A stretch of DNA of 58,649 nt from a virus (taxonomy: Duplodnaviria; Caudoviricetes): positions 1 through 58,649 of IMG/VR virus record IMGVR_UViG_3300032232_001117, one strand, 5' to 3'. Positions 11,384-57,653 of this stretch are shown in pieces (within the stretch, counting starts at the first letter, position 1; each line of letters opens with the position of its first letter). The position numbers and the translations under genes were made by a program. The notes under the pieces were generated by a model. It did no database searches. It worked only from the letters and a program-made list of their open reading frames with translations, and was not told the DNA's origin.

Positions 11384-11881
11384 GGGATTCTTAGATAAAT
11401 CTTCCCAGAGATTGGGGAAAGTCATTCACTGCCGCACTGCTCCCCCCACGCCTGCGACGCCTCGGAAAAAGTCTCGGGGCTGAGGGGGCTGGAGACAAAC
11501 TAGTAGGCATGCCTTACACCCCCCCCCTTTATCCACAGGCACACCCCCCCTCTGGTCAATAGGCATACCCTATGAGGCATAGGTGATACCTACCCCCCTA
11601 TGGTTATGGTCTCTGGGTACGGCATTGGGTATGACATTGGGTATGGACACATAGCATGCTCTCGGCATGCCATGAGACAGCCCTGAACGCCTCATGAGAC
11701 TACCTATGAGACACCCCATCAGACTGTTCGCATAGTGCCCTTCGTAGTACGCACATAGCAACGAACATACATAGTCATACATCGCATGACCATGACGATA
11801 CAAAACCTCGCATCGTCAATCACACCAATGAAATCGTCAGTCTCTGCGCGCCACCACTGTGTCGTGTTCTACAATGATTCT
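11384..11881. other. ~500-bp non-coding region of unusual composition (possible genome end, packaging site or origin)
   Basis: C/G runs, a DnaA box at 11529-11537, many CATA/TATG/GGCAT words; TACAAT -10 at 11870 for the giant gene. Confidence 0.4.
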
Positions 11882-14800
11882 ATGCCCTTCTCTTATGACA
11901 TCTACCCTGACGAATCATCGCGCGCAAAGCGACGCTTACAAGCGCATTCATCGGAAGGCATAGAGGTCAAGGCATTAGGTTCTAACCTTGGTCAGATAGC
12001 ACGAGGACAAGCAGTGTATGACCCTAACGCATACGACGGTGACGGTGACGGCGTCGTACAGGACAGCACACCCTTTGAGAGACCAGCCGTATTGTCTAAC
12101 ATCGCCTCATTGACAAGGGGGCTCGCAAGTGCCACGGGTAGATGGGGAGATGACTATCAGAACTGGACAGCAGGTAAGACTAACGAGGAGATAGCAGAGG
12201 TAGTAGTACCTGATAACCCTGCTGACCTACTGTCATACATAGCGATACACGCAAGCACTCATGGTCTACCAAGAATCTATGCCAGTGTAGACGACCTTCT
12301 CTCACAGACACGACAATCGTTGCTTGGCGTGGACTTATCACCAGAGACAGTAGCCAATACTCGCAAACTATTAGTAGATACTCTCAATAACAATCCTCAG
12401 ATGAGAGAACTGATAGATAGATTCGGCATACCCCCAATAGTGACACGAAAGAATAAGCCTGAGGTATCAGGGGCAATGACGCAACACATGCTCATGTTCC
12501 TGTCTAAAGAAGGAATAGACCAATACACGGATGGCAAGAGGAGAGGCAAAGGCAGTATGGATACTTCCGTGTTGTCTCGTTTGTTTGGTGACGACATAGA
12601 TAAACTATCTGACCTATTACCAGACTTTGTTTCTGATAAAACAATGGAGAGCACATTCGTACACGAATACGGTCACTACCTATTCTCCTATGCTTCCTAC
12701 AACCACCCTGACCCAGAGGTCAGAGAGATGTTGTATGTCATAAACAACTCACCGTGGAAATGGTTGAGCGACCCAGACAACATAAACCGTTACGACTTAC
12801 CAGAAGAATGGTACGACTTGGCTACCCTTCTCACTAGTGGTCATACAGACATAGACCCAGATGATGAATACAACATAGAGGATTATGTCAAACCTAATGG
12901 AATAGTGCCACCCTCTAAGTACGCCCTAACTTCACCTTCAGAAATGGTTGCTGAACTATTTGCCGAAAGCATCTTAGAACCAAGGACTGATAATAGAAAT
13001 ACAGAAATCCTCCAAACCCTCACGGGTAGAAAAACCACCGACAAAGGATTCGCTTCTGTAACACTCCCTGGCACTAGGTGGTTTGACGATAAGTCAATAG
13101 AGGACATTGTTGATGCTGTTGTTCCATCCACACCAGAGAAAGCACGCGAAGAACTAGAAGCATGGTCGCAGTGGATGTTTGACTTATCAGGACCTGGCTA
13201 CTTTGATGTTGATACAGAGGGAATGACTCCGTCAGAAAAAGTAAACCTAGAACTAAAGCGTCTAAAGTTTCACATTGATAAGAAAATGGCAGGCAACTAC
13301 AACAGAGTCCTTAGAAAGGCTCGTCGTTACAAGGGGGAAGTAAAACCAGAGGAAGTATTTGACTTCTCCGAGGAAGCCCTTATGGGTCTACGGAACATGG
13401 TTTCAGAGGCACTGAACAACAGCCCTGAGTTCCTAAGCCATGTAAGAGACTTTGGTATGCCACCACTATTCGTAACTAAGGGTGAAATAGTTCCTGGCGC
13501 AATCTTTAACGGTAGCACTGGGGCATTGTTTATCACAATGAACAAACTATCCCTAGACCCAACACCTCTAGAAAACCCTGACGATGCGCGCGCAGGAAAA
13601 GGTAGAAAACTTGCTGGCACAGAGTGGTATCTAGAGTCAAACGGAAACTGGAAACCAGAAAGCGTTTTATTCCACGAGTTTGGTCACTTTGTAAACTACT
13701 TGTCCTCAAACCTTCACCCTGATAGGGAAACTCGTTACTTAGCAATGTGGTATTGGCGCATGAGTTGGGGCGAGGGCAACGGGTGGCGTATGAAAAGAAA
13801 GTGGAAGAAGTTTCGTAAAGAAAACCCTGGATACAACTACGACGCTGCTGATAAACGGTGGCTACAAGTTGAGGAAATCAGAGACGCCATAAACAGCAGT
13901 GGGGCGCTTGATTGGGAGAATGGTCCACCTCATGTATTGAGTGAGTACGGACAGCAAAACCCAGCAGAAACATTTGCTGAGGGATACGCAGCATGGGTTA
14001 GTGGTGACGCTGAACAGATGGCTCGTGTCAGCCCTGCCTTGGTAAATGACATAAAGAAGCATGTGACCTTCCCAACTCGCGAGGAAGCAACAACAGAAGT
14101 AGACATGACTCAGGCGATGGAAAGACCTAAGGGTTTTGCCTCACTAAAAATCAAGAGAAACGAAGATGGTACACGCGACCTCGCAGCAGCACTTGATGGA
14201 AGCAGTCCGTCACCCCTTGACGGGTCTAACTGGCTGAAAGACGCAACACCTAGAGAGATAGCGCAAGCGATTGTCCCACGCACAAGAGAAGATGCCGTGA
14301 ACTTGATGCTTATGAATCTACTTGCTGGTAATAGAAATCCAGACGCAATAACAATGGCTGCCATGCGCTCAATCCTATCCAAAATGCTGGATACCGACAT
14401 CTTTGACTTCTCACCAGAAGGCATTTCTCAAATGGAGAAGTGGATTGAGAAGGCGTTAGACGAATCTCCTCAGTTCCTATGGCAGGTGCGCAGATTCGGT
14501 TCTTTGCCCATGATTCCCACGGACAGAAACGCAGTACGTAAGTACAGAGACGCTTTAGAGAACGGTACCCCGATACCTATTCTTTCCATGAATGGCGCAA
14601 GAACAGAAGCCATTACATACCCATTCACAAATACTAACTACAACTTGACGGCAGAACAAGAACTCATGGAAACACTTTATAGTGGTTCTGTTGCCAACCC
14701 AGGCATTATGGGTTACTGCGTAGGAAGCCTATTCATGGTTATGAACATGCATCACCGTGAATGGCGTGGTATTTGGGACCCACAGAAGTCTCCACCACCA

Positions 14801-17800
14801 AAATTTGGAAGAACACGCCGTGTGCTTATGGGTGTTGGTAAAACACCCGGAGAACAACGCCCGTTCCCAGCGTACGACAAGTACGGAAGGCTTCTTGTAT
14901 CAAACTTTGGCACAAGCCTTGAGGGTACAATAATCCACGAGTGGAGTCATGGGTGGTTCTCTAGTCTCTTTGGTCCAAAACAAGGACTTGCAATTATTCC
15001 AGACATCAGAGACGAAGTCGCTCGTAAGAGTCGCATTATGAATCCGGGAACTATTCTTGATAAAAATGACCTTTATCAATTCGGTGGCAAGAGAGATGAT
15101 AGGTACGCATACTTCTTCCCAGACCTTTCGAGAGACGAAGCAGAAGCCCGTGTTGAGTTTGCAAAAGAATTCCTATCGCCTTGGTCACTAACGATTATCC
15201 CCGTATTGGAATCCCCTCGCGATGCAAGTCTTCTCATTCACTTTATGCAGATGGCTGTAAGTAAGACACAATCTGTTTACGGACCAGGTTCACCAGAAGT
15301 AGCAGAAATAACTCAAAGAATGAACGACTACGGTCAGGAACTCATGAATAGAGGGTTCCAAAGAATACGTGCCCTCACGAATGCAGCAAATGTACCAATA
15401 GACGCATTTGCGCATCAGATTGGTGTTGACCCTAACGACCCAGACCAGATGCAGAACATGGCGATGTTCTACGGGTACGAGCCGGGAATCAACCAAGATA
15501 CTTGGCAAGGTCTTGCGCAGGATTTCCCAGACATCTTCGGTGACCCGTCACTTCCTTTTTCCACACTTGCTGGTCAGTACGCACAAAAGAACCCACAAGA
15601 GACATGGGCTGAACTAAACATCCAAATGGCTCAACCTGATTCTGATTACAGAGACGAATACATCACCCCAGAACTGAGAGCAGCACTGTTGTATGTTCTG
15701 GGCGAACACGGCAACCCGTTTGATACAAACATAACCAACATTCCTTGGGAAACACGTGGAGGCTTTGCATCTAGAACAAAAAAGGTAGAACACGCTCGCG
15801 CAACCGTGATAAAGCGCTCATCCAATACGCTTGGTAATGTTGTTTCTTCACGCTCAACCATTGATAACAGAGCACTACGGGTAGTAAAGTCAACACGAGA
15901 CGAGCGTGGTCATACGCGCTTTGAGATTGGTGATTACACATTCACTATCCCTGGTGACAGTTTCATGCCAGACCTTTCAAGCGCATACACCGAGTGGGCA
16001 TCGGAGTCTCACTACGGTATTCAGCAGATGTCACGCATGATGATGGGTGTTCAGAAAAGCAGAAAAAACCCTCTCACCATGCCTGGCAACGCTGAGATTA
16101 ACGTTATTAGTTCAGGAAGACCTGTGACGGAACTAGATGAGAGAATGCTTTCATCCATTAGGTCAACAGCGACAAAGACTAATCGCATACTTGACGAAAT
16201 CAGAGACGGTGACTCCTATTCATCTATGCCTCTCTACCATGCCGTTAATGCAGTAGAACAAGATTCAGACATCCTTAGCGCATCAATCGGCGACACTATC
16301 TCCATGCCTTTATCTTCCTTCTCTCCCAACTTCATCAATCCAGACATGGTAACTAACAGAGGAGGAGGCGATGGTTCTGCCGTTATCAAACTCTCTATGG
16401 GTGCAAAAGTAATGGAGAGCAATCTTCTTGAAAACACAAACCGTAACGGGGAGTGGAGAGATGTTCCGATTGAAAGCATTACGGGTGGCAAATTTAAAGT
16501 TATTTCTAGAGATGAACGAAACGGTATCCCAGTAATAGAGATTGAACACACCGACATATTTGATACAACATCTGGTGAGTGGGTTAATGTTGACCCCAAT
16601 GACGCCATGTCGTCTATCCGTTATGAAGTTCTTACCGACAGAGGCATTAAGAAACTTGAGAAACTCAATAAGCGTCGCACGATTCTTGGAGAAGAAAACC
16701 CCGAATATGGGAAAATAACTGAAGAGATTGACGCAGTCGCAAACGATGTTGTTCGCAGTATGTTCGGTGGCAACACCGACCCAGTACTGCCTGTTCTTGG
16801 CATGTCAAGAGAAGACAGAATGAAGTTTGAAGAGCAGATGGATTTCCTATCAGCAATACCTGTTTCCTCAATGGATAAGCGTGGATTGCCAGGATTTGCA
16901 TCTGTAAGTGACGCCAATATGGCGTTTAGTCGCAGAATCACCCCAGAGCGTCGTGTTACTAAGTCAGCCATACGCATGCTCCAAGAGAACCGTGAATACA
17001 TCGCAGACAGAATGATTCCCGGTACTAATCGTGAAATTCTTGATGATGTATGGGTAGACAAAATGCTTGACAAACTCAACAATGGCGAGATAACTCACGC
17101 TGACGGCATGAACATAATGAATGTAATCATGGATTTAATCGGTGACAGAATAAAGAGAGACCCATCATCGCGTGATGCTACTGACGGGGATGTGTACCAC
17201 TACCAGAAACTCGGCAAGAGACTGCGCAGAGCAATGACGGCAGAAATAACAAGAGAAGAAACTCTAAATCTTAGTAAAGCATCAGGATTTGCCTCAACCT
17301 CGTCTAGAACCAATACAAAAATCTCTGAACCATTCAACCCAACCGTCATCTCAACCGAAGCCAGTGACGCTGAATGGGGTCAATTTGAGTCAAGTAGAAC
17401 TATTGTTCAGGCTGTTGTGTACGACATTGACGGCGAGAAGGTTGTGTTTGGTGTTGAGGAAAGACACGGGCTTGATACGACTGGAATCAAAGTCATTCCG
17501 CTTAACCCCTACGAGATTACCGAACTAGACCGCGACAGTGAAGAAGGCCAAGAGATGGCTCTTGATTGGCTCTACGCAAACCTTGCTGCTTACGAAGACG
17601 CGGATTACAACAATAGAAACGATACAGAAATCAGTGCTCTCCTTTATTCTGCTACTAAAGGTGATAAAGAATCAAAGAAAAAGTTTAAAGAATACGCCGA
17701 AAAAGGTCGTGAAATAGCACAACAAAGACGTCAAGAGGCGCTTGATGAGGAAAGCAAAAGGATTGACTCAAGAATGTCTGACCCTCAAGTCGCTTGGGAT

Positions 17801-20800
17801 GTTAAGTATATGCAAGAGAGACTTGCATATACGAGAAAGAAGAAAAAAGATGGTTACGTATCGGCTCCGTCTAAAGAAGAAATTGATGATGCAAAGATTA
17901 CTCCAGACAACTTAGTTCTAGTTCGTTGGAGCGAGTTCCCACCAGAGTATGACGCCGACGGCAATGTCATTCTTCAGCCCGCCAGCGAGTATGTAGCAGT
18001 CGATAGACAAACAATGCATTTCACGTTGAATCACTCGGTTGAAGAGCATATGTTCTGGAACGACGGCGATGGTGAAGGCTACCTAATTATGACCACGCTT
18101 GGTGATGTGTTAGAAGCAAACGGGACTGAGTCATTAGACAATCTCTACGGCGTAGATACATACTTCACTCCCAAGCCAGGCGAGGGATTAAAACTCCCTA
18201 AATCAAAAGTTATCAAAGTCTCTAAGGGTGAAGATAGAAAAGCAATCACCGCAAGAGTTGTCGAAGAAGAGTTTGATTCTTTTGCAGTTACTGGAGGACC
18301 TCACTACACGGGTACCGCAGGTTTCGACGATACGGTCAGAATTGTTGCAAGAGACTTAGGAATCGTTCCCGGAGGTCTTCACGCTAATAGACCTCATCAC
18401 TTACTTGAACAAATGAATAACTATTTAAGTGATTCTGGTTCAAAAGAACGAGACCTTCGACCAGAAAAAAACAATAGTGGTCCCTATGTTGAAGACATTG
18501 CAGAGATGGAAAAGAACGCGCTACTAAGACTTGCCGATAGAAAGCACGCTCCATGGAGTGGCGTAAACGAAAGTCGTGTCGCAAATCCAAAGGGCAGTTT
18601 AGCATCTGTATCTCGCTCAAGAACACGGGCAGATGAACGGTTGGCTAGTTTAAATAACGCAGAAGAAATAAAAGTTATTGATTCTGTTCAAAAAAGAATT
18701 GGCTTTGCTTCTCGCACAGACGCTGTTAACCCAAGAGGTAGAACCGTTGAAGAAGTAGCAAAAGAACTTGAATTAACAGAAGAAGAGAAGAGAATACTTG
18801 CTAAGTTTCTTCCCAATTTTGACAACGTTGAGGATTATCAGTTCCATCCTTCAATAACACCAGAACAAAAACGTAAAATTATTGATTCCATACGTATTCG
18901 TGTCGATGACGGTATTCCGTATATAACAATAGATGGCAACCCGTTCTTGATGGATGAAATTCCAGACAAGAGAGACTGGTCAACCGTACTCGCTCCTTCT
19001 GATGAACAAATCAAAACAGTAAGTGACCTATTATTAAAACTAGGAAGACAAGCAGGGTTCTCCACTTTTGAAAGACCCAACAATCTGGGGTTCACTTTAG
19101 AAGAAGAAGACAGAGCAAGAGAGCACATAAAACTTAATATTGTTGCTTTCAGTCAGTGGGCGATGGACCTATATAGAGAAATAGGCAACAAATACCCAGT
19201 CTTAGACGACAGCACGCTTGAAAGAAGCAATTTTCCTGACGTTCCAGGTGGAATGATTCACTACACCGGCATGGGTTTGTACTTCAACGCCCTTAGTGGT
19301 TTATTGCAAAGAGGAATACTTGACTACTACGGTGAAGAAGACTTCTTAAACGCTCATGACCTTTGGGGACATATAGCAACTGGTCGCAGTTTTGACAGAC
19401 ACGGTGAATGGGCAAACGCTTTAGCAATGTGGTCAATGATGGATAGGTGGGCAAAGGAAAACAATATATCTGAATCCGACTTAATACGCACGAAGTTGCG
19501 TTGGATGACAGGATTAGAATTTAACCGTTTTTCTTTTAGAAACTTTGCTGAGATTCCTGAAGACATGACGGATGCTGAAAGAATAGAATTGCAAACTTCT
19601 GTATACAGGGTGCTTAATAATGGCATGGCTACCGACGACGAGATTAAAGAAGTACTTGCCTTACTTGACCATGGGCGTGTTGCTCAGTCAGAAAACGCCA
19701 AGAAGTTGACTGACGCTACCGAAGGAGAAAAGGCTGAAATAGTTAAAACCGATGTCGTTAGAACAACACTTCTTGATAGAACCAAAAAAAGATTAGGTTT
19801 TGCTAGTGCTTCAAATACACGCAGGATTGTCGACATGGACCTCGGAGATTCTGGCTCAGAAACTGGTGAGGTTATTGCTGAAAAAATGGGCCTCACGGGT
19901 AAGGCTGCAAGAATAGCGAAAGAAGCATTCCAGCGCACTCTTGAATCAATATCAAATGGCACTTTCAGAAAGTACAAGATGGCTAAAGGTGTTGATGAGC
20001 ACAAGTCCCGACTTCTTGACTCAATACGCATAGTAATCAGCGCAGACGATGTTCCGATGATTATGGCTGACCCACACCCAGTTTTCTTTAGGCTTTTAAC
20101 AGATAGAAGAGACTGGTCAAAGATTGAGATTCCAAGCAATGCGACCATTAACGAGTTTGTAAAGAGGCTAAAAGAAGGAAACAATCCACTAGCCAGAAGA
20201 GGCAACCAACAACGCACTGACGAGAACACTGGTTATCAGAAATTTAATAAATGGGCGTTTGAGAAACTACTACCACTAATAAATGCAACAGAAAGACAAG
20301 AGTACGGCGAAAGACCCAATCCTGGAGAATTGGATTTAGATGACGAATTAATGGTTTTGTCTGGAAACGAATCATGGGCTTCACTCTATATTGGTTCTCT
20401 ATTTGACGGAGAAAGTGCTATAGGCAACAGCCTTATTGAAGCATTTGATGCACTGCACGAAGCAGTAGGTCATGTTGCAATTGGACGAGGGTTTGATAGA
20501 CACGGTGAATACGCAAATGCTCTTGCAGTACTTTCATTATTTAGACAACCAGAACTGCAAGAATTGCTCACAAAAGGAGAGATTCAAAAGTTGCTAGGGA
20601 AGATAATGGCTGACTACCTGGCGGGTCCTATCGGTCTTGCTACAAGAGAACAGAGCAACGTGCTTGAAGATGCGCTAAACGCTGCAAATCATGACATCAA
20701 AATGAGTCCAACTGGCGAACTTATGCAACTGATTACAGACTATGAAGGTGACCTTTTTGAACTTATAGACCTTTTAGAATCCGAAATAGATAAGACTCCA

Positions 20801-22174
20801 GCACTCAAGGAGGACGGTTCACCACTTGAGTCCCGTCCTAGTGGATTTGCATCACAAAGCAGACGTTCTATTGACCGTGTGAAACCAGAAGTACGTGACG
20901 AGATAGCAATTGCTGATGCCGTACACCTTTCCCCAAACAAGAAAACTTCTAAACCAGCAGGGTTTGCCTCAAGGGCAGTGGACTTCAAACAGGGTACGCA
21001 TAATATTGAAGTTAAAGACAATGCACCAGAAGCAGACATGTTTACTGCTGACGATAAAGGTCGGACTATCCAGGTGTACGTGCCAGAAGGCGTAGAGGTT
21101 ATAAACCCACGAACAGGCAAAAAGATGATTCTTGACTCACCTGATGCTTCAACAGAATTTGTTGCTGACGGTGGCAACTTATCTGAAGTTCCAGATGTGC
21201 ATTTGAATTCAGCCATCCTCAACAATGCAGAAGATGTTCCTGGAGAACGCAGAAGCGGATGGAGATTCTCAAAACCAGGCGGAAGATTTGAGTGGGTAGG
21301 TGGCGGAGGAGGCGCAACTGGGATGATGCGTCTTAGGGATAGAACAACAAAGGCTTTATTCGGCATAAAGTTTGAGGCCTCATTTATGGCACCAGAAGAC
21401 GATAGGTATGGAGAATGGACATCACCAATTCCAATTACCGACTCCAGCGCTGCTGACGCTCCAGAAGGAATAATAAACGAGGTTGTTGGTCAAGCAGTAC
21501 TTCAAGCGCTTGGCTTTGAGCCCGGGGCAACAAGAATAGTCAAGAGAAGTCCTCGTGGTGCTGGGGACAAAAATGGCGGAGCATCGATGCTAGTGGATTT
21601 TGTTCAAAATAGACACGGGAGAGTACGTGACGCTGACGACTATGCGCCTATGGCTGTACGAAAAGAATCAGCAATAAGAATGCTCCTTCTTGATGCAATA
21701 CTTGGAAATAGAGACAGAAATCCAAATAACTTTTTAACATCTATTCAGAGTGACGGAACAAGGGTTATCGTCCCCATAGACCACGGAGCCATCATGGCTA
21801 GAAGGTTGAATCAGTTTGATTTGAGAGGGGCAGTTTCTTCACAGATAGGATGGAACGCTATTGAGTACGAGAAGATTCTTGATGATATGACGCGAGCAGA
21901 ATTGATAGCAATCATGCCCGGCATTCTTGCTGACTACAGAGCCGACATAGAACAAAAGAAAACAGATATCGTAAAGGCAATGAATGAAGCGGTCGACAAA
22001 CTGATTTCGCTTCACGAAGAAGGTGAATGGCCTGATATGGAATACCTTGAAAAACTATATGAAGAATACGACAATAGGCTTAAGCCGGTTTTTTCAAGAC
22101 TAGATGAAGTAGCGTCAATGTCAGATGAGGACTTTTTGGACTTGTTTAAATATTTAAGATTTGGATACAAATAA
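11882..22174 (+). CDS. Giant multidomain (polyvalent) protein, ~3430 aa: 3 HExxH metallopeptidase modules, ART-like module, 2 H[DE]xxGH modules, C-terminal HipA/PI3K-like kinase
   Basis: HEYGH 12662, HEFGH 13673 and HEWSH 14936, each with a downstream Y...P.E..AE; HDLWGH 19355 and HEAVGH 20456; DAILGNRDRNPNN...IDHG at 21692-21787; leaderless ATG at 11882. Confidence 0.85.
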   Translation: MPFSYDIYPDESSRAKRRLQAHSSEGIEVKALGSNLGQIARGQAVYDPNAYDGDGDGVVQDSTPFERPAVLSNIASLTRGLASATGRWGDDYQNWTAGKTNEEIAEVVVPDNPADLLSYIAIHASTHGLPRIYASVDDLLSQTRQSLLGVDLSPETVANTRKLLVDTLNNNPQMRELIDRFGIPPIVTRKNKPEVSGAMTQHMLMFLSKEGIDQYTDGKRRGKGSMDTSVLSRLFGDDIDKLSDLLPDFVSDKTMESTFVHEYGHYLFSYASYNHPDPEVREMLYVINNSPWKWLSDPDNINRYDLPEEWYDLATLLTSGHTDIDPDDEYNIEDYVKPNGIVPPSKYALTSPSEMVAELFAESILEPRTDNRNTEILQTLTGRKTTDKGFASVTLPGTRWFDDKSIEDIVDAVVPSTPEKAREELEAWSQWMFDLSGPGYFDVDTEGMTPSEKVNLELKRLKFHIDKKMAGNYNRVLRKARRYKGEVKPEEVFDFSEEALMGLRNMVSEALNNSPEFLSHVRDFGMPPLFVTKGEIVPGAIFNGSTGALFITMNKLSLDPTPLENPDDARAGKGRKLAGTEWYLESNGNWKPESVLFHEFGHFVNYLSSNLHPDRETRYLAMWYWRMSWGEGNGWRMKRKWKKFRKENPGYNYDAADKRWLQVEEIRDAINSSGALDWENGPPHVLSEYGQQNPAETFAEGYAAWVSGDAEQMARVSPALVNDIKKHVTFPTREEATTEVDMTQAMERPKGFASLKIKRNEDGTRDLAAALDGSSPSPLDGSNWLKDATPREIAQAIVPRTREDAVNLMLMNLLAGNRNPDAITMAAMRSILSKMLDTDIFDFSPEGISQMEKWIEKALDESPQFLWQVRRFGSLPMIPTDRNAVRKYRDALENGTPIPILSMNGARTEAITYPFTNTNYNLTAEQELMETLYSGSVANPGIMGYCVGSLFMVMNMHHREWRGIWDPQKSPPPKFGRTRRVLMGVGKTPGEQRPFPAYDKYGRLLVSNFGTSLEGTIIHEWSHGWFSSLFGPKQGLAIIPDIRDEVARKSRIMNPGTILDKNDLYQFGGKRDDRYAYFFPDLSRDEAEARVEFAKEFLSPWSLTIIPVLESPRDASLLIHFMQMAVSKTQSVYGPGSPEVAEITQRMNDYGQELMNRGFQRIRALTNAANVPIDAFAHQIGVDPNDPDQMQNMAMFYGYEPGINQDTWQGLAQDFPDIFGDPSLPFSTLAGQYAQKNPQETWAELNIQMAQPDSDYRDEYITPELRAALLYVLGEHGNPFDTNITNIPWETRGGFASRTKKVEHARATVIKRSSNTLGNVVSSRSTIDNRALRVVKSTRDERGHTRFEIGDYTFTIPGDSFMPDLSSAYTEWASESHYGIQQMSRMMMGVQKSRKNPLTMPGNAEINVISSGRPVTELDERMLSSIRSTATKTNRILDEIRDGDSYSSMPLYHAVNAVEQDSDILSASIGDTISMPLSSFSPNFINPDMVTNRGGGDGSAVIKLSMGAKVMESNLLENTNRNGEWRDVPIESITGGKFKVISRDERNGIPVIEIEHTDIFDTTSGEWVNVDPNDAMSSIRYEVLTDRGIKKLEKLNKRRTILGEENPEYGKITEEIDAVANDVVRSMFGGNTDPVLPVLGMSREDRMKFEEQMDFLSAIPVSSMDKRGLPGFASVSDANMAFSRRITPERRVTKSAIRMLQENREYIADRMIPGTNREILDDVWVDKMLDKLNNGEITHADGMNIMNVIMDLIGDRIKRDPSSRDATDGDVYHYQKLGKRLRRAMTAEITREETLNLSKASGFASTSSRTNTKISEPFNPTVISTEASDAEWGQFESSRTIVQAVVYDIDGEKVVFGVEERHGLDTTGIKVIPLNPYEITELDRDSEEGQEMALDWLYANLAAYEDADYNNRNDTEISALLYSATKGDKESKKKFKEYAEKGREIAQQRRQEALDEESKRIDSRMSDPQVAWDVKYMQERLAYTRKKKKDGYVSAPSKEEIDDAKITPDNLVLVRWSEFPPEYDADGNVILQPASEYVAVDRQTMHFTLNHSVEEHMFWNDGDGEGYLIMTTLGDVLEANGTESLDNLYGVDTYFTPKPGEGLKLPKSKVIKVSKGEDRKAITARVVEEEFDSFAVTGGPHYTGTAGFDDTVRIVARDLGIVPGGLHANRPHHLLEQMNNYLSDSGSKERDLRPEKNNSGPYVEDIAEMEKNALLRLADRKHAPWSGVNESRVANPKGSLASVSRSRTRADERLASLNNAEEIKVIDSVQKRIGFASRTDAVNPRGRTVEEVAKELELTEEEKRILAKFLPNFDNVEDYQFHPSITPEQKRKIIDSIRIRVDDGIPYITIDGNPFLMDEIPDKRDWSTVLAPSDEQIKTVSDLLLKLGRQAGFSTFERPNNLGFTLEEEDRAREHIKLNIVAFSQWAMDLYREIGNKYPVLDDSTLERSNFPDVPGGMIHYTGMGLYFNALSGLLQRGILDYYGEEDFLNAHDLWGHIATGRSFDRHGEWANALAMWSMMDRWAKENNISESDLIRTKLRWMTGLEFNRFSFRNFAEIPEDMTDAERIELQTSVYRVLNNGMATDDEIKEVLALLDHGRVAQSENAKKLTDATEGEKAEIVKTDVVRTTLLDRTKKRLGFASASNTRRIVDMDLGDSGSETGEVIAEKMGLTGKAARIAKEAFQRTLESISNGTFRKYKMAKGVDEHKSRLLDSIRIVISADDVPMIMADPHPVFFRLLTDRRDWSKIEIPSNATINEFVKRLKEGNNPLARRGNQQRTDENTGYQKFNKWAFEKLLPLINATERQEYGERPNPGELDLDDELMVLSGNESWASLYIGSLFDGESAIGNSLIEAFDALHEAVGHVAIGRGFDRHGEYANALAVLSLFRQPELQELLTKGEIQKLLGKIMADYLAGPIGLATREQSNVLEDALNAANHDIKMSPTGELMQLITDYEGDLFELIDLLESEIDKTPALKEDGSPLESRPSGFASQSRRSIDRVKPEVRDEIAIADAVHLSPNKKTSKPAGFASRAVDFKQGTHNIEVKDNAPEADMFTADDKGRTIQVYVPEGVEVINPRTGKKMILDSPDASTEFVADGGNLSEVPDVHLNSAILNNAEDVPGERRSGWRFSKPGGRFEWVGGGGGATGMMRLRDRTTKALFGIKFEASFMAPEDDRYGEWTSPIPITDSSAADAPEGIINEVVGQAVLQALGFEPGATRIVKRSPRGAGDKNGGASMLVDFVQNRHGRVRDADDYAPMAVRKESAIRMLLLDAILGNRDRNPNNFLTSIQSDGTRVIVPIDHGAIMARRLNQFDLRGAVSSQIGWNAIEYEKILDDMTRAELIAIMPGILADYRADIEQKKTDIVKAMNEAVDKLISLHEEGEWPDMEYLEKLYEEYDNRLKPVFSRLDEVASMSDEDFLDLFKYLRFGYK

Positions 22175-22941
22175 TGTCATCAAAGTATTATTTTCTTATT
22201 GGTCCCAACTCCGTTGACTCCAGTGCCCCGTCAACTCTTTTTATCTATGAAACAGAAAACAATGACACAGAGGGTGAGTACACTGTCTACCATAGGGACG
22301 AAAATCTTCAGAACTATTGGGAAAAGTGGTTAGAACAGGACTACTTTACTCCTTCCCAGTTTGTAAACCGATTTGGATACAGTGCTGTTGACGCTGGTCC
22401 ACTTAAAGACGAGGGCCACTTCCAAGAACTACTCATAGAAGCAGGCATTGTCAATAGAGACACAGTCAAGGGCAAGGTGCTGGCATGGGTAGACACAACT
22501 ACAAAAGACTTCCTATCAAACGCGCCTGATATTGACTTCAAAGAAGGCGGCTACACCAAGCCCGAACTTCGTGAGCGCATCAAGAACAGAATTATGGCTG
22601 GTGACAAAGGCGGAAACCCGGGGCAGTGGTCCGCCAGAAAAGCACAGTTGCTCGCTCTTGAGTACCGAAAAGCAGGTGGGGGCTACACGGGTAAGCCCAG
22701 AAAGATACAGCGTTCGCTCAAAAAGTGGACCAGAGAGAAATGGACCACATCAGATGGCAAACCAGCGATTCGTAAAGGTGGCACTCGGAGGTATCTCCCT
22801 GCTAGTGCTTGGTCTCGTCTTACGCCTGCTCAGAGGTCAGCGACGAATAGAAAGAAAGTCCAAGGAAGTAATCAGGGCAATCAATTCGTTGGAAATACAG
22901 AGAAGGCTAAGAACGCGGGAAGAAACGCTAGAAAGAGTTAG
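22174..22941 (+). CDS. Phage protein with C-terminal DUF5872-like domain
   Basis: YTKPELRERIK...GGNPGQWSARKAQLLA.EY..AGGGY...SLKKWT.EKW...RYLP. Confidence 0.75.
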   Translation: MSSKYYFLIGPNSVDSSAPSTLFIYETENNDTEGEYTVYHRDENLQNYWEKWLEQDYFTPSQFVNRFGYSAVDAGPLKDEGHFQELLIEAGIVNRDTVKGKVLAWVDTTTKDFLSNAPDIDFKEGGYTKPELRERIKNRIMAGDKGGNPGQWSARKAQLLALEYRKAGGGYTGKPRKIQRSLKKWTREKWTTSDGKPAIRKGGTRRYLPASAWSRLTPAQRSATNRKKVQGSNQGNQFVGNTEKAKNAGRNARKS

Positions 22942-23611: not shown

Positions 23612-24218
23612 CGATTACTTCCGCATCCATAATGTCGTCACTTTTTGCCTGCTGTAGTATCCCCATGACAGTAGCAGATGGGAGTACGCCAGAAGAACCC
23701 ATGATTTCTAGCAGTTTTCTTGCTTCGGTTTCAGGGTCAAAGGCGTCGATAGCGGCGGGACTCTGCGCTGCACCGGCAAGGGTTGCATTGATTGTCGTCT
23801 CACTGCTTCTGATATCTATGTTGACGTTGGTGCCGCCACTACTCATTTCCATTCCAAGTAGTTTTGTTCGTCTGTCAATGATTGATAGAACCTGTTGGAC
23901 TGCCTTCATGTCAGGCTCCACCGCAACTTCCGTTCCGTCATCCATCTTTACCTTACGATGCTGAGTCATGGGCCAGATTGCCGACTGAAGGTTGTCCAGA
24001 CGCTCCAGTTCCATCCGTAAGACCTCTGGATAGGCGAGGAGGGCTTCTTTGTTCATCTTCTCTAATTGGCGTCTTACAGCCTGATTGACGCCGCTTGTGG
24101 ACATCTCGAATCTTCTTGCGATTTCATGGGTGGATACACCAGCCTGTCGCATTTTGAACACACGAAGGTCTCTCTCTGCGAGGAACTCTCTCGTCATGAC
24201 CTTATTTTGTTTGCTCAT
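23601..24218 (-). CDS. Terminase small subunit-like HTH protein
   Basis: MRQAGVSTHEIA HTH followed by ELERLD.L...W...AV..VL.IIDRR.KLLG, as in actinophage TerS-like proteins. Confidence 0.6.
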   Translation of the reverse strand: MSKQNKVMTREFLAERDLRVFKMRQAGVSTHEIARRFEMSTSGVNQAVRRQLEKMNKEALLAYPEVLRMELERLDNLQSAIWPMTQHRKVKMDDGTEVAVEPDMKAVQQVLSIIDRRTKLLGMEMSSGGTNVNIDIRSSETTINATLAGAAQSPAAIDAFDPETEARKLLEIMGSSGVLPSATVMGILQQAKSDDIMDAEVIDEQ

Positions 24219-25945
24219 CTATTCACCTTAGCAAACTCCATCACTTCAAACGGAAACAATTTGCCTCTCCTCATTTTAGTTGGGAATGGGCGTTCATCAC
24301 GAGCACCTCGGAAATGGCGCACATCATAGACGTGAGGTCCACCGCCTGTGAGGTCTGGAGTGAGGGCAATACCGAACTCGGGCCAACGGGACCACACAGC
24401 GGAGCCAAACGGACGCATCTGCCTGTTAGTCATACTCTCTCCCAATGGAGCGTGATGCTCTAACCACAGTGCGCACTTGTAAACGTCACGAACATGGTCT
24501 AAGTAACGGGCGACTTCTACTGCAACAGACTCGGATGTGCGACCACCTGGGTCAATAAATGCTTTATACAGAGGCCCCATGACGAGGAGTTCTGGTTTTG
24601 CTTCCTCAATAGCCGTCTCTAATATCATTCTGTCCTCTGCTTTCATGAGGTCCAGTCCCGATGGCTTCACCAGCAGTTGAGCAGTGGGTTTAGTTGTGTA
24701 TCCCCTGTCCAATGCCGTATTGAGGATTGATGATGCTGTACGACGAATGATGCGCTCTGGGTTTTCCAAGTCAACAGTCAGTGTTCTGATTTGTTTCATC
24801 TTTTGATAAGTAAACGGGTTGATGCCACAACCCGAGAGGATTGCTACTTGTCGTGCAAGCATTGTTTTACCAACACCTTCGGCTGCAACAACGATTACTC
24901 GTTCGCCACGCTCAAGAATGTCTTCAATTACCCAGTCGTATGAGTCATCGGTACTTTCGTTGATGAATGAATCCCAATCAACCAAGCGACCGAAGTCAAC
25001 TGGCTTGTCCCTAGAAGCGAGGAGGGCAATGTCCTGTGCCTTGACAAGAACTTGCTGTGGCGTGAGGTCTGTTCTAACAAGTAAAGCCTCTAACTTTGTT
25101 CTCGCTTGAGAGAAGGCGTCGCTCGTTGGCGGGACCGCCACGGGTTCTACTGCCGGCGATGGGGTTGGTTTATCCATCTCTAGTGCAAGGAAGTCATCAA
25201 GTGAACCACCCATTGCAAGGTACTCAGTTACATCTTTGCCTTTTGGTGCGACCCAAATGTTCGCTACGCAACCAGCCTTTGTCAACTCTGACAGCACGAG
25301 TTTTGCGTGAGCGATTCCTGGCTCGTCATTGTCTGCAATGATTTCTACTTCGGCTCCTGCAAGTGCTTCTGTATGAATGTCAAGCCACTTACCAGCCCCG
25401 CCCGGCATTGTTGTTGCGATGATTCCTATTTCAATGAGAGTGTCGGCGTCTTTCTCTCCCTCAACAACCCAGATTGGATAGCCACCTGCTACTCCTTGCT
25501 TCACTGCTGGAAGGTTGTAAAGAATCTTTGGTGTATCGCCTAGCGCATAAACCCATCCACCTTGACCATCAGGCTTGCGTTGACGAAATGTTTTCTTGCC
25601 ATCAGCGTCTATGTAACGAAGTTTTTGGAACAGTAACTCACCGCTCTCATCAATATAGTCGTATGTCTTGACCAAGTCAAGTTTTGCTTTAGTGTTATTT
25701 GTACGTTTTTGTGGGGGGAACAAAGCGGCGAGTGTTACGCCAGCAGATTCACATATTTCTTTTGTGCTGCACGGGGAGCCCCGATGGCACGTGACAAGAA
25801 TGTTTCCTGTCTTTGCGTCTTCTGAAATAGAAAGAGATGGATTGTCGTCATCGTTCCTGCATGGACAGCGTGCTTCCCAACCGTTAGGTGTATCCCTTAC
25901 TCCATTGAGCCGAGAGAGAAACTCGTCAGTATGCAGATGCGTCAT
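24215..25945 (-). CDS. DNA primase-helicase (Zn finger + TOPRIM + RepA-like SF4 ATPase)
   Basis: ARCPC...PSLS...CH; VEGEKDAD, ADNDEPG, KGKD; Walker A-like AAEGVGKT. Confidence 0.9.
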   Translation of the reverse strand: MTHLHTDEFLSRLNGVRDTPNGWEARCPCRNDDDNPSLSISEDAKTGNILVTCHRGSPCSTKEICESAGVTLAALFPPQKRTNNTKAKLDLVKTYDYIDESGELLFQKLRYIDADGKKTFRQRKPDGQGGWVYALGDTPKILYNLPAVKQGVAGGYPIWVVEGEKDADTLIEIGIIATTMPGGAGKWLDIHTEALAGAEVEIIADNDEPGIAHAKLVLSELTKAGCVANIWVAPKGKDVTEYLAMGGSLDDFLALEMDKPTPSPAVEPVAVPPTSDAFSQARTKLEALLVRTDLTPQQVLVKAQDIALLASRDKPVDFGRLVDWDSFINESTDDSYDWVIEDILERGERVIVVAAEGVGKTMLARQVAILSGCGINPFTYQKMKQIRTLTVDLENPERIIRRTASSILNTALDRGYTTKPTAQLLVKPSGLDLMKAEDRMILETAIEEAKPELLVMGPLYKAFIDPGGRTSESVAVEVARYLDHVRDVYKCALWLEHHAPLGESMTNRQMRPFGSAVWSRWPEFGIALTPDLTGGGPHVYDVRHFRGARDERPFPTKMRRGKLFPFEVMEFAKVNR

Positions 25946-26295
25946 CGTTTAGCCGCTTGCTCCATAAGAAAGTCTCCACCGTTTGCATCACGCAATCCGA
26001 CTCCTTTGAAAACAATACGCCCCTCACGCCCCAGATTCAATTTTCGGGACCAGCGAAGTTGCGCGCGTTCTTGCTCATCCAAACCTCCCCAAATACCCCA
26101 AGGCTCCCACTCAAGTGAGTATTCAAGACACTCCTGTCGACAAACACATGTTTTACAAATCGCTTTTGCCATCAAAGTATTTTTTCTAAGTTCTGCAACT
26201 TCTTCCCGTTTACCAGTTTTTTGTAGAGGGAACCACCATTCGGTATCTCCACCCTTGCAAGCCCCGTTCTCTGGCGAAAAAATACCTTGTTCCAT
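25942..26295 (-). CDS. whiB: WhiB-family transcription factor
   Basis: C...AKAICKTCVCRQECLEY...GIWGGL...ER. Confidence 0.92.
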   Translation of the reverse strand: MEQGIFSPENGACKGGDTEWWFPLQKTGKREEVAELRKNTLMAKAICKTCVCRQECLEYSLEWEPWGIWGGLDEQERAQLRWSRKLNLGREGRIVFKGVGLRDANGGDFLMEQAAKR

Positions 26296-27566: not shown

Positions 27567-27742
27567 TACGCAAGGGCTACAGAAGACGAACTCGTAAAAC
27601 CCTTGCTGGGTAAGGGTTTCCTTTAGGTAGACAACCCGCCCCTTAGGGGGTAAAATGGTATTACTCAGTTATCACTGACGACGACATAGGCAAGCGCTTG
27701 TTATCTGCTTGTTGCCCTATCCGCCGAGCACAGGAGAAACCC

Positions 27743-28684
27743 TTGAAACACCCCGTACGCCTTTTGGCTATTTCCATATCTATTGTGTCCTTCATTGGAC
27801 TAACGACGAAAGCCGAGGCTACGGATTCCCCTCCGACTACTTCAATACCGACAAGTCCCGCGACTCCAGAAGTAAAAGCGTCGAAATACGCTGGCATGCA
27901 CCCAGAGTTAGTAACGCAACTAAAGTCAAAAAAGGCTGGTTCTATTAGGTTTTGGGAAGCAGTTTCTTGGTGCGAGACCAACCACAAATGGAATGACGGT
28001 GGTCATTTTTCTGGTGGACTAGGAATGGCGCAATCAGTTTGGGTCAATTACGGGGGGAAGCAATTCGCTTCTCGTCCATCTAAAGCAACAAAGCACGAGC
28101 AGATAATCATCGCCAACCGTGCTTCCTTCTTTGGTTTTCAAACTAAAAACATATTTAGAACTCTTGACGATAAAGAAAACAACAAGCCGTTCTTCCGACC
28201 TGCAGTTGGTTGGAGAAGTATGAAGAACTGGGGCCGGGGCTGTGTTAATTGGGAAACACGTAAACCGTTGCGAGATAGATACACCGAAGCAGGAATGGCT
28301 GAATGGAAGAAAACCAGACCAGGATACAAGGCTGCTTCGGGCAAGGTTTCCTCTCAAAGCATCAGCAGTACGCAAGTAAAAAGTTGCCCTCAGTGGGAAG
28401 CAAAACTAAAAGCGCAAGGACTTATTCCAGTAAAGAAGTTTTCGTACATCATGTGGCGAGAGTCCCGTTGTCAAGAAAAAGTTGTTTCTAAGCCGAACTC
28501 AAATGGAACGAGAGATTACGGATTGTTGCAAATCAATTCGTCATGGAGAACAGTGACCAGACAAGTGTGTGGGGGGACTAATCTCAATGTTCTACTCAAT
28601 TCAAAGTGCAACCTGAAGGTAGCCAAGTATCTTTTTGACAATGGCGGGATTGGTCATTGGAAAGCAACGAGCGGTAGTAAGTAA
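27743..28684 (+). CDS. Secreted protein with two lysozyme-like domains: Rpf-like transglycosylase and SLT/lysozyme-like domain
   Basis: AGGAG + TTG start, signal peptide ending AEA; WEAVSWCE...GGHFSGGLG...W...GG..FA.RP..AT..EQI; MWRESRC...NSNGTRDYGLLQINS. Confidence 0.85.
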   Translation: MKHPVRLLAISISIVSFIGLTTKAEATDSPPTTSIPTSPATPEVKASKYAGMHPELVTQLKSKKAGSIRFWEAVSWCETNHKWNDGGHFSGGLGMAQSVWVNYGGKQFASRPSKATKHEQIIIANRASFFGFQTKNIFRTLDDKENNKPFFRPAVGWRSMKNWGRGCVNWETRKPLRDRYTEAGMAEWKKTRPGYKAASGKVSSQSISSTQVKSCPQWEAKLKAQGLIPVKKFSYIMWRESRCQEKVVSKPNSNGTRDYGLLQINSSWRTVTRQVCGGTNLNVLLNSKCNLKVAKYLFDNGGIGHWKATSGSK

Positions 28685-37385: not shown

Positions 37386-37453
37386 ACATCCATTGTGCCT
37401 TGTAAGGGGTAGGGACACAACCTGCCGACTACATTTTTTTACGAAACCCTCTA

Positions 37454-47166: not shown

Positions 47167-47261
47167 AACATCATTATGCCGTGTAAGAGATAAGGAAACA
47201 ACCTCTAAATAAATCTATCTAAGAGGTTGTGGTAGTAGTCCTTACAAGGCACAATGGAGAC

Positions 47262-49323: not shown

Positions 49324-49808
49324 TTACAACAGAACACATAAACGCCATACACAAATCTATGTGGGATGATGCCATTGAGAGACATGGCGACAAGTTCAAA
49401 GTACCTTCTGATGTAATCACACAGATATCAAGCCACACTCGTGCGCTGTATGTACTACAAGGCTGGAATGGGTCGGGCAATCCTGCTCGCTACCTTTCCA
49501 CCTACTCCATACCAACAGAAGTAATCGCCCAAGTTCTCGCTGAATACTGCAACGAAATCGTGGACACCGATGAAATCGGTACCCCACGGCCCCGGCGAGC
49601 AGACAAGTATGACGCTCTTATTGAATGGTCTAAGCAACACATTTTCGAGCAGTTCACTACAGAACAACTAGTGGAGCAATCAGGCTTCTCCTATCCCACT
49701 ACTCTCAAGTTTCTCCAAGATTCTCCTACCTTTAGAAAGGTAAAGAAAGGTCTGTGGGAAGTGCGTGACGCAGACGCAGACAGAAAATCAAAAAAATCTT
49801 CACAGTGA
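49320..49808 (+). CDS. Protein with C-terminal winged-helix domain
   Basis: FTTEQLVEQSGFSYPTTLKFL...FRKVKKGLWEV. Confidence 0.7.
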   Translation: MITTEHINAIHKSMWDDAIERHGDKFKVPSDVITQISSHTRALYVLQGWNGSGNPARYLSTYSIPTEVIAQVLAEYCNEIVDTDEIGTPRPRRADKYDALIEWSKQHIFEQFTTEQLVEQSGFSYPTTLKFLQDSPTFRKVKKGLWEVRDADADRKSKKSSQ

Positions 49809-49845
49809 GGTTGTCACCTTGTTTCTTACAAGGCACAATGAAGTC

Positions 49846-57038: not shown

Positions 57039-57653
57039 TCATTTGTTCTTCTCAGATTCCTGCACATAGGTGTTGAAAGGGCTTCCCGTATAAGGGTCAA
57101 ACTTGGCAGAAACCTGTAGCGCTTTAAGTAATGCACTCTTGGCTTGGGCCGGCGATATCTTCTTGCCAGATACCAATACTTGTAACGCCCCTAGCGTGTA
57201 GGGTGCTCCAGTGCCGGTCGCATATAGACCAGACGCTTCTGGGGTCCACGAGTAGTCGCTCTCAATAATGTAAATCGTGGAATTAACGACAACCATTATT
57301 GATGAATCCTGCTCAGCAATAGTGTTGTTGTTATTGTTCCCTACCGAATACCCGTGGGTTTCAAAACAAGACCTTAGTGCCGGGATGAACTTAGTCGTCA
57401 TGAAGGAGTCTAGTCTCTTCCCCTTTAGCCCTACTGTAGGAGCAGGAGGCTGAAAGGCATGGTGAAGGAGGTTTATGGCTCTCATGTCGCCCGCAGCACC
57501 CAGTAAGTATTTGCCATTTATAGCAATCTTTGCTGAACCAGACCCAAGAGTGGATATCTGGTATGCGTTTCCGGAGTCGTCTAGAGAAGATATTCTTGTA
57601 TCAGCGGCGACAACGACATACCCGTCTCCCTGAATACCTGCAATTGTTGTCAT
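57039..57653 (-). CDS. Proteasome beta-subunit/HslV-like Ntn hydrolase
   Basis: N-terminal MTTIAGI, AADTRIS, K, GAAG, ATGTGA.Y.LGAL, D.YTG. Confidence 0.85.
   Translation of the reverse strand: MTTIAGIQGDGYVVVAADTRISSLDDSGNAYQISTLGSGSAKIAINGKYLLGAAGDMRAINLLHHAFQPPAPTVGLKGKRLDSFMTTKFIPALRSCFETHGYSVGNNNNNTIAEQDSSIMVVVNSTIYIIESDYSWTPEASGLYATGTGAPYTLGALQVLVSGKKISPAQAKSALLKALQVSAKFDPYTGSPFNTYVQESEKNK

Follow-up and report, generated by a model that had tools for sequence, protein, structure and literature searches.

The window analysed here is the whole of the virus record IMGVR_UViG_3300032232_001117 (Caudoviricetes), 58,649 bp long and 39% complete as estimated by CheckV, and the element in question is a giant open reading frame (ORF) on its plus strand in which the tetrapeptide GFAS recurs between putative modules. 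The open frame spans 11786..22174 and encodes 3462 amino acids (aa), or 3430 when read from Met33 at 11882. The latter is the more likely start, since the homolog consensus begins there (MPFSYD) and the -10-like word TACAAT lies 7 nt upstream. Residue numbers used throughout count from the ATG at 11786; 32 has to be subtracted for the start at 11882.

A first-pass annotation of this DNA had reported nine copies of GFAS in the ORF, together with the variants GLAS and GSLAS, and we recovered every one of them at exactly the same positions (Table 1). Nine copies compare with 0.047 expected from composition (Poisson P(>=9) = 3e-18), and the runner-up tetrapeptides in the ORF reach three copies each. 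A six-frame scan of the window found a single GFAS outside the giant ORF, at 24594 in a plus frame; it is likely not part of a gene, because it lies inside the span of a primase/helicase ORF on the opposite strand, 24215-25945 (-). The copies of GFAS differ in their codons, and no DNA-level repeat family extends across the sites beyond the 12 bases of the motif itself, which agrees with the proposal that conservation acts at the protein level. Within the ORF the only substantial DNA repeat is shared by the two H[DE]xxGH modules, over 60 nt with a match of 77%. In 50,697 phage records neither a near-DNA search nor tblastn found a match to the giant ORF.

Composition of the giant protein and placement of its sites

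We tentatively divide the giant protein into a leader of ~110 aa followed by ten modules: three with HExxH motifs, one resembling ADP-ribosyltransferases (ART), two without an assigned family, two with H[DE]xxGH motifs, one short spacer and one kinase-like module (Table 1). Modules S1-S3 are internal paralogs of one another, as are S7 and S8. When the whole protein was compared with Pfam, the only matches were PI3_PI4_kinase (E 8.6e-5, 23 bits against a cut-off of 27.1) and, in S1, SprT-like (E 0.099); comparison with PHROGs gave two families without assigned function, and profile searches of the protein in three thirds against PDB sequences gave nothing usable. ESM Atlas returned Peptidase_M90, ATLF and Phage_min_cap2 for S2 at 0.92-0.93, which we treat as leads only. 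For residues 1290-2290 the best Foldseek matches in the PDB are ADP-ribosyltransferase toxins at E 2.8e-3, none reaching 1e-3, and the model used for the comparison is poor. The corresponding matches of S10 are CtkA (2.5e-3) followed by PI3K, actin-fragmin kinase and HipA, and in BFVD this module matches a phage protein with a PI3/4-kinase domain (7e-13). Other BFVD matches include a 1201-aa protein labelled 'portal protein, HK97' and proteins with head-morphogenesis domains.

The module identities proposed in the first-pass annotation were thus sustained in part: the three HExxH motifs are invariant among homologs, whereas the ART-like and kinase-like folds are weak (Foldseek E about 3e-3), and the list is plausible but tentative for everything beyond the HExxH and H[DE]xxGH motifs. 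Several unrelated enzymatic domains are combined in one phage polypeptide, as in polyvalent proteins, with the individual domain calls being weak, and a Pfam scan of the whole protein found none of the signature domains of polyvalent proteins (e.g. MPTase).

In order to follow the sites across relatives, we ran a word-indexed search with the giant protein and obtained 25 proteins at 100-28% identity, none of which has a functional name. One of them (P0002, on a 96-kb contig) is identical to the giant of the window, and all but one carry 5-13 copies of GFAS. The 25 sequences were aligned with MAFFT and scored with a strict pattern, G[FLM][ARS]S, and a relaxed pattern, G-Phi-x-S or x-Phi-A-S; counts refer to the homologs that cover the alignment column concerned. 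At 10 of the 11 sites the relaxed motif is found in all 21-24 covering homologs or reappears after a shift of ~30 residues, so the homologs do keep the motif at the boundaries. Every covering homolog has it at sites 421, 1703, 2306, 3020 and 3059, and the weakest site is the GSLAS at residue 2271, where 1 of 24 homologs has the strict motif. Among 13 diverse rows the motif columns have conservation values of 0.69-0.98 at all sites but one of the 11, the exception being site 2671 with 0.23; for the 20 residues flanking each side of the sites the values are 0.37-0.88. Within the motif, the hydrophobic residue and the second residue after it, Ser, are kept best; A, F, V, S, I or T may stand between these two, and the leading G is at times replaced by V, S or A.

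The homolog without GFAS is also the most distant one (P0026, 28% identity). It has ten copies of GLAS together with GMAS, GHAS, GTAS and GPAS, and GLAS occupies the identical alignment columns at 6 of the 11 sites of the window. A switch of the whole set is what a shared recognition partner would predict, and the best reading of GFAS is probably as the spelling, in the lineage of the window, of a more general signal [G/P/A]-[F/L/M]-x-S-[R/S/T]. A search for stand-alone, shorter forms of residues 2306-3462 gave 12 proteins; the six that we inspected look like fragments or internal-Met calls and none of them starts at a site, so they give no evidence of genes split at the motif.

The first-pass annotation had placed the motifs at module boundaries and had asked whether the sites lie in disordered linkers or are buried in folded domains. 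Two AlphaFold2 models, built on alignments of 10-11 rows, cover residues 1290-2290 (mean predicted local distance difference test score, pLDDT, 50.8) and residues 2263-3462 (mean pLDDT 62.5). All eight distinct sites covered by the models fall in segments with pLDDT<50, namely model residues 1-192, 366-487, 519-551 and 966-1001 of the first model and 1-49, 368-416 and 753-820 of the second; sites 112, 421 and 783 lie outside the models. In the second model 29% of the residues are below 50 and all five of its sites are among them, for which the chance is 0.002. Placement at boundaries is also what the homologs display, with module-sized indels at the sites: of their internal insertions the four largest, of 275, 410, 50 and 413 columns, are all found no more than 4 residues away from site 1834 or site 3059. 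Since these insertions abut sites and the module lengths between sites are otherwise constant among homologs, the modules appear to behave as cassettes, each with its own site. The giants of five related records (G005-G009, described below) lack modules S6, S9 and S10.

Table 1. Features of the giant ORF and the HslV-like peptidase gene in the window (residues counted from the ATG at 11786; strict and relaxed patterns as defined in the text).
Feature	Position	Strand	Remarks
Giant multi-module ORF	11882..22174	+	homolog consensus start, TACAAT-N7-ATG
S0 N-terminal block, aa 59-111, KALG..DPxAxDGDGDGxVQDxTPFERPA	11960..12118	+	ends at site 1; proposed capsid-targeting propeptide
Site 1 GLAS, aa 112	12119..12130	+	G[FLM][ARS]S in 23/23 covering homologs
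Module S1, zincin-like, HEYGH 12662-12676	12119..13045	+	H293, E294, H297 invariant in 14 aligned homologs
Site 2 GFAS, aa 421	13046..13057	+	strict 15/23, relaxed 23/23
Module S2, zincin-like, HEFGH 13673-13687	13046..14131	+	H630, E631, H634 invariant
Site 3 GFAS, aa 783	14132..14143	+	strict 23/23
Module S3, zincin-like, HEWSH 14936-14950	14132..15760	+	H1051, E1052, H1055 invariant; paralog of S1, S2
Site 4 GFAS, aa 1326	15761..15772	+	strict 21/23; pLDDT<50
Module S4, ADP-ribosyltransferase-like (weak)	15761..16891	+	Foldseek E 2.8e-3, low-confidence model
Site 5 GFAS, aa 1703	16892..16903	+	strict 21/24, relaxed 24/24; pLDDT<50
Module S5, 131 aa, no family assigned	16892..17284	+	
Site 6 GFAS, aa 1834	17285..17296	+	strict 24/24; insertions of 275, 410, 50 columns abut
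Module S6, folded domain, no family assigned	17285..18592	+	pLDDT 75-88 over about aa 1880-2190
Degenerate site GSLAS, aa 2270-2274, then 31-aa spacer	18593..18607	+	relaxed 9/24, mostly xFVS
Site 7 GFAS, aa 2306	18701..18712	+	strict 20/22; pLDDT<50, model segment 1-49
Module S7, HDLWGH 19355-19372	18701..19795	+	phrog_3170
Site 8 GFAS, aa 2671	19796..19807	+	strict 10/22, ~30 aa upstream in others; pLDDT<50
Module S8, HEAVGH 20456-20473	19796..20842	+	paralog of S7
Site 9 GFAS, aa 3020, then 35-aa spacer S9	20843..20854	+	strict 18/21, relaxed 21/21; pLDDT<50
Site 10 GFAS, aa 3059	20960..20971	+	strict 14/23, relaxed 23/23; 413-column insertion abuts
Module S10, protein-kinase-like (PI3/4-kinase, CtkA or HipA type)	20960..22171	+	Pfam, Foldseek, BFVD
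HslV/proteasome-type N-terminal nucleophile (Ntn) peptidase, starts MTT	57039..57653	-	phrog_1040, Pfam Proteasome

The motif and the leader block in related phages

Distant giants and large records were found by scans with the family alignment, and five records were read whole: G005 (118 kb), G006 (132 kb), G007 (151 kb, terminal repeats), G008 (141 kb, terminal repeats) and G009 (78 kb). Each of them, like the window, encodes 2-3 WhiB proteins, and the capsid protein of the relatives is nearest to those of Brevibacterium and Gordonia myophages (46-48% identity); based on these two observations, the hosts are probably Actinobacteria.

The motif is not confined to the giant protein in these genomes; it recurs throughout their large head-module proteins, a Peptidase_S78 fusion always among them, and in the protein at the tape-measure position. 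Record G006 has 29 copies of GLAS against 1.46 expected, and 28 of the 29 fall in six ORFs of at least 794 aa. Ten of them are in its homolog of the giant and nine in a 2089-aa protein that has an N-terminal Peptidase_S78 domain and adjoins the portal gene. Three proteins encoded between the protease and the major capsid gene (1744, 1298 and 794 aa) have two copies each, and three copies are found in a 1517-aa protein in the tape-measure position, after the sheath and tube genes, which matches a tail-lysin PHROG. The assignment of the protease domain is based on PF04586 (44.5 bits, cut-off 21, residues 22-165) and phrog_80 (1.4e-26), and the portal gene (PF04860) is located immediately upstream of the fusion, as befits a member of the Peptidase_S78 family. 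The 794-aa protein, encoded at L118:9001-11385 (-), carries DUF3721, the leader block S0 and a Zeta_toxin kinase domain; the G006 giant has NUDIX and DUF3626 domains, and the Peptidase_S78 fusion has a helix-turn-helix resembling sigma-70 region 4. Judging from these domains, the predicted cargo is diverse.

The spelling of the motif differs between lineages. It is [E/D]-GFAS-R-G in G007, which has 21 copies of GFAS and 19 motif matches in a 4898-aa Peptidase_S78 fusion; it is mixed in G005 (GFAS, GFSS, GLAS and GMAS, then [RS]-T-G); and it is [P/A]-LGS-R-S in G008, with 24 copies in a 3987-aa Peptidase_S78 fusion and 7 in the 2693-aa giant. Tandem doublets of the motif, 6-11 residues apart, also occur. 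The Peptidase_S78 domain heads the most motif-dense ORF in four of four large records, and it starts frames of 2136-2455 aa in four of five further records, the fifth being a 32%-complete fragment. In 67 viral loci we counted 50 distinct frames of at least 800 aa, of which 27 have at least four motifs, and the commonest spellings in these loci are GFAS, GLAS, GMAS, GLRS, GMRS and GFSS. The protein in the tape-measure position has lineage-matched sites after a leader of 20-50 aa and near aa 580-640. One motif shared by several head proteins, including the protease, is what is expected of prohead protease substrates, and this was found in the relatives only (G005-G008). GFAS had been described as a feature of the giant protein, where it is indeed present; it is not private to that protein, however, and in the relatives it corresponds to a genome-wide, lineage-specific signal.

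The block directly 5' of the first site in the giant of the window (S0, DGDGDGxVQD..FERP) is a second shared element. It is present in 3-4 large proteins per related genome: in the Peptidase_S78 fusion, where it follows the protease domain at about aa 430-530, and in 1-2 further head-module proteins per genome at about aa 210-300. The S0 family is large, since 770 clusters carry the leader block at E<=1e-3 (174 at <=1e-10) among 1.84 billion representatives. Motif statistics cover the best 150 of the 770 clusters. Of these 150 proteins 91 are at least 1000 aa long, and 51 of the 91 have at least four matches to G[FLM][ARS]S. A single spelling occurs at least four times in 43 of the 91, the dominant one being GFAS in 14, GMRS in 10, GLAS in 8, GLSS in 5, GFSS in 2, GLRS in 2, PLGS in 1 and SLRS in 1. 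A Peptidase_S78 domain is present in 33 of the 150; 29 of those are at least 1000 aa long, 26 of the 29 have at least four motifs, and the largest has 5358 aa and 26 motifs. In 39 of the 96 proteins that could be evaluated a motif comes no more than 60 aa after S0, as compared with 16% at random positions in the same proteins. Because one of its carriers is the prohead protease, which must enter proheads, S0 may be an encapsidation tag that is parted from the cargo at the first site.

A candidate processing signal and its alternatives

We consider it reasonably probable that the tetrapeptide is a lineage-specific processing signal in capsid-targeted polyproteins of actinobacterial-type myophages. 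In such a scheme the S0 leader block would bring the precursor into the prohead, where a packaged phage-encoded endopeptidase would cut at or beside the tetrapeptide. The cutting enzyme could be either the Peptidase_S78 prohead protease, which in the relatives is fused to a motif-rich cargo chain, or the zincin modules of the precursor itself, and the enzymes so released would be carried in the head and pass into the host along with the DNA. Cleavage, packaging, ejection and the assignment of enzymes to bonds are all points that we infer from sequence. The idea that the polyprotein is packaged in virions, put forward in the first-pass annotation, receives indirect support, since head-module proteins of the relatives, including the prohead protease fusion, bear the motif and the giant has their N-terminal block. 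The computational checks that it had proposed all came out in favour of its reading. Of the candidate proteases that it had named, the prohead protease is not encoded in the window and is known from relatives only. A more far-reaching picture, which we offer as a tentative and rather doubtful extension, is that of a large uncultured clade of actinobacterial myophages that would make much of their head cargo as polyproteins (up to 5358 aa and 26 sites), one of them fused to the prohead protease, addressed by a shared leader and cut at a private code (GFAS, GLAS, GMAS, GMRS, PLGS and others) that co-evolves with the packaged protease in each lineage, so that each particle would bring dozens of different enzymes into the host. 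In this picture the code would also insulate the processing of each phage from competitors and host proteases.

The candidate proteases are Peptidase_S78, the embedded HExxH modules and the HslV-like peptidase, and the candidate bonds are G-F, F-A and A-S. In favour of Peptidase_S78, it is a head protease and is fused to the densest substrates, and prohead proteases with a consensus site are established in SPN3US, phiKZ and T4; a cut at A-S would fit an assemblin or a serine protease of the HK97 type. An alignment of this domain across six spellings, which are too few lineages for such an analysis, revealed no obvious specificity-linked substitutions. In all six genomes the zincin modules form the conserved core of the giant, and they diverge at the same pace as the motif; zincins typically select a hydrophobic P1' residue, in which case the cut would be at G-F. 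Such a role would agree with what Iyer et al. proposed for the metallopeptidase domains of polyvalent proteins. The HslV-like peptidase is the only candidate processing protease in the window outside the giant ORF. Its gene is intact, it matches Pfam Proteasome (PF00227, 28.4 bits, cut-off 22.4) and it has the N-terminal Thr after Met that places it in this family; a cut behind F, L or M would be in keeping with such an enzyme.

Several other processes were considered as a source of the motif and rejected. A Prp-type cysteine protease (as in L27 cleavage at F-A) is not encoded, PF04327 being found in none of the five records, two of which are complete genomes, in a search that detected its positive controls. 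Autoproteolysis of the G-S, HF-S or SEA type needs a folded, strained context, and the sites have disordered, variable flanks. The sortase signal LAxTG is out of register by one residue and absent in most lineages, there is no carrier fold here that would fit the GxDS site of carrier proteins, and a 2A-like ribosome skip bears no resemblance to the motif.

A number of observations weigh against processing in the capsid. The structural models rest on few alignment rows (10-11) and their mean confidence is low (50.8 and 62.5); the first of them, with 59% of its residues below 50, discriminates poorly between linkers and the rest. The Peptidase_S78 domain is 78-90% identical between lineages of different spelling, which argues against this protease as the determinant of specificity. 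The shell proteins lack the motif: in G006 it is absent from the portal, capsid, sheath and 1224-aa tail-fibre proteins, and the major capsid protein (71-92% identical in five records) has no conserved motif at the end of its delta domain. In this respect the phages differ from T4 and phiKZ-type systems, whose shell proteins share the motif. Conversely, the protein in the tape-measure position is not a head protein, yet it bears the motif. The window has no portal, capsid or Peptidase_S78 gene, so the link to the head rests on relatives, and the giants of those relatives are only ~28-30% identical to that of the window, as compared with 93-96% for the HslV-like gene. Finally, no recurring tetrapeptide was found in two cultured or named relatives, Gordonia phage DalanDe (capsid 48% identical, 1633-aa protease fusion) and Actinomycetia phage DSL-LC01 (HslV-like gene, 3289-aa head-module protein), or in the loci L026, L028 and L089, whose giants of 3400-3480 aa have the S0 block; in these three loci the code is either absent or present in a form that escapes the patterns used. 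The giant of L028 also has an HEWSH zincin motif. In two more giants, those of L069 (2462 aa) and L094 (3082 aa), the commonest tetrapeptide is GSKS with six copies each, which may be another spelling or an unrelated repeat.

The same observations can be read without any cleavage. In one such reading, which we regard as unlikely, the tetrapeptide is left intact and serves for docking or tethering, much as encapsulin cargo-loading peptides do: it binds the inner capsid, a scaffold or a chaperone, and the giant stays full length like beads on a string. Linker position, repetition and lineage spelling fit a binding peptide as well as they fit a cleavage site, the tandem doublets would give avidity, and there is a precedent in phage N4, which packages a protein of ~3500 residues unprocessed according to the available text of PMC5512222. 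However, docking needs no site at every boundary, nor one after the 20-50-aa leader of the tape-measure-position protein; each inserted module brings its own site, and there is no obvious co-varying receptor, given that the capsid protein is 71-92% identical across spellings. It is very improbable, in our view, that the Ser is instead an acceptor of modification, e.g. of phosphorylation by the kinase-like module of the giant itself or of glycosylation, with no cleavage. Conservation is highest for the Ser (position 4) and the hydrophobic residue (position 2), the giant ends in a kinase-like module and disordered linkers are typical modification sites, but the kinase module is absent from the equally punctuated giants of G005-G009, and modification would leave the placement at every boundary and the module-sized indels unexplained. 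We give just as little credence to the motif being a passive linker remnant, copied along with modules and kept uniform by gene conversion, with no recognition function. Such copying would be in line with the internal paralogy of S1-S3 and of S7-S8 and with the gain and loss of modules at the sites; the codons nevertheless differ between sites that share no DNA repeat, unrelated modules and proteins of one genome have the motif in common while the flanks vary freely, and whole genomes change their spelling together, which requires selection on recognition.

Cleavage could also take place outside the capsid. A cut in the cytoplasm by the soluble HslV-like peptidase (after F, L or M) or by a host protease, in which case the modules need not be packaged, seems to us slightly less probable than an uncleaved docking peptide. 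Enzymes of the HslV type degrade their substrates processively and depend on an ATPase partner, which weighs against such a cut, as does the 93-96% identity of the HslV-like protein between the window (GFAS) and G006 (GLAS) or G005 (mixed spelling). Phage DSL-LC01 has an HslV-like gene and no punctuated protein, a Prp-type protease is missing from all five records, and, apart from the giant and the protein in the tape-measure position, the motif proteins are encoded between the portal and capsid genes. Nevertheless, the HslV-like gene is present in all five large related records, including two complete genomes, and a conserved hydrophobic residue followed by a variable residue and then Ser would suit an enzyme that selects a hydrophobic P1 residue. 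A soluble enzyme would also explain the motif in the tape-measure-position protein, and in the window the giant gene sits among genes of replication and nucleotide metabolism. Cleavage of the tape measure protein during tail assembly is established for T5 and lambda, as stated in the available part of bioRxiv 10.1101/2022.09.20.507954.

Processing in the capsid, our preferred reading, has partial counterparts in known systems. The HK97 maturation protease gp4 reportedly carries a C-terminal capsid-targeting tail, in work said to be by Duda, Oh and Hendrix in 2013. The likeness is in the order of parts, a Peptidase_S78 catalytic domain and then an encapsidation segment, and S0 would play the role of that segment here; gp4 has ~25 kDa and no cargo, whereas here 1900-5100 residues of modules follow. 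Encapsulin cargo-loading peptides are short, disordered sequences of Gly, Ser and hydrophobic residues that address cargo into a shell of the HK97 fold. They occur once, are terminal and are left uncleaved, in contrast to the 10-26 internal copies at module junctions described here. The polyproteins of RNA viruses (with 3C-like or NS3 proteases) share with the giants a single product, a junction motif in linkers, an embedded protease and a lineage-specific consensus. Unlike RNA viruses, these are double-stranded DNA (dsDNA) tailed phages with ordinary gene expression, in which the format would serve co-packaging and delivery and not genome economy.

Prohead proteases of other large phages offer a further comparison. 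The consensus of T4 gp21 is L/I-x-E, and gp175 is the prohead protease of phiKZ. That of SPN3US, gp245, has an AXE consensus with 14 sites in nine substrates, as given in the available part of PMC10052503. In T4, phiKZ and SPN3US, as far as the available accounts go, one short motif likewise occurs in many head-associated proteins, and the substrates include the protease. Propeptides of 20 to ~250 residues are cut off at the N-terminus, and the cargo presumably passes into the host by ejection. Their proteases belong to the T4 gp21 family and mostly trim one propeptide, whereas the relatives of the window have a Peptidase_S78 (HK97 type) fused to 2000-5300 aa of cargo. Other differences are the 8-26 cuts per precursor proposed here, into separate enzymes, the shared address block, and a spelling that varies among lineages with 70-96% identity in their capsid and HslV-like genes. 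For polyvalent proteins, Iyer et al. (2017, PMC5512222) have proposed that metallopeptidases embedded in them carry out the processing. The giant resembles them, as the available text of that paper portrays them, in holding many unrelated modules (zincin-type, ART and kinase-like) in one polypeptide and in the predicted co-delivery with DNA and processing by peptidases. The same text names no recurring cleavage signal, whereas here a tetrapeptide is found at every junction and is common to other virion-module proteins. Full-text literature searches brought up no account of a junction motif that recurs in giant proteins of phages.

If processing at the tetrapeptide is real, it would provide polyvalent phage proteins with the readable processing code that they have so far been without, and sequence alone would suffice to predict which mature products a giant ORF yields. 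It would also mean that dsDNA phages use polyproteins for the delivery of cargo, with an HK97-type protease carrying cargo of its own. S0 and the tetrapeptide would then be a candidate address tag and release site for loading foreign proteins into capsids, and the fast and concerted change of a tetrapeptide between phages that are otherwise 90% alike would be a natural case of co-evolution at a recognition site.

Neighbouring genes and other features

A gene for a 255-aa protein, 22174-22941 (+), overlaps the stop codon of the giant (ATGA) and matches two PHROGs without an assigned function and, weakly, DUF5872; in G006 the gene at 27693-28355 follows the giant in the same position. Upstream of the giant, a non-coding stretch of ~500 bp (11384-11881) contains C-tracts (CCCCCCC), repeated GGCATGCC and GGTATG-like words.

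Ten promoter-like elements of the form AGGTTGTG-N(about 17)-CTTACAAGGCAYAATG-N5-(T)ATG are present in the window, at 37403, 39947, 41876, 42558, 43234, 44854, 45629 and 46853 on the minus strand and at 47244 and 49828 on the plus strand. They place a -10-like CAYAAT 7 nt ahead of the start codons of small genes, which suggests that these genes may give leaderless or near-leaderless early transcripts. The ATG at 11882 of the giant has TACAAT at the equal 7-nt spacing and no GGTTGTG box.

An AAA ATPase gene at 49765-50583 (+), with matches to CobS or MoxR-like PHROGs, is followed by the gene for a 497-aa partner of phrog_33218 at 50583-52076 (+), and the pair resembles the CobS/CobT-like pair annotated in DSL-LC01. 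The WhiB genes of the window are located at 26056-26271 (-) and 56669-56854 (-), both above the Pfam cut-off, and one of them adjoins the gene for the HslV-like peptidase, an arrangement that is also seen in DSL-LC01. Record G008 has 13-14 copies of each of the tetrapeptides PPFF, PFFP and FFPP where 0.12 would be expected, so this phage probably encodes a PPFF repeat protein.

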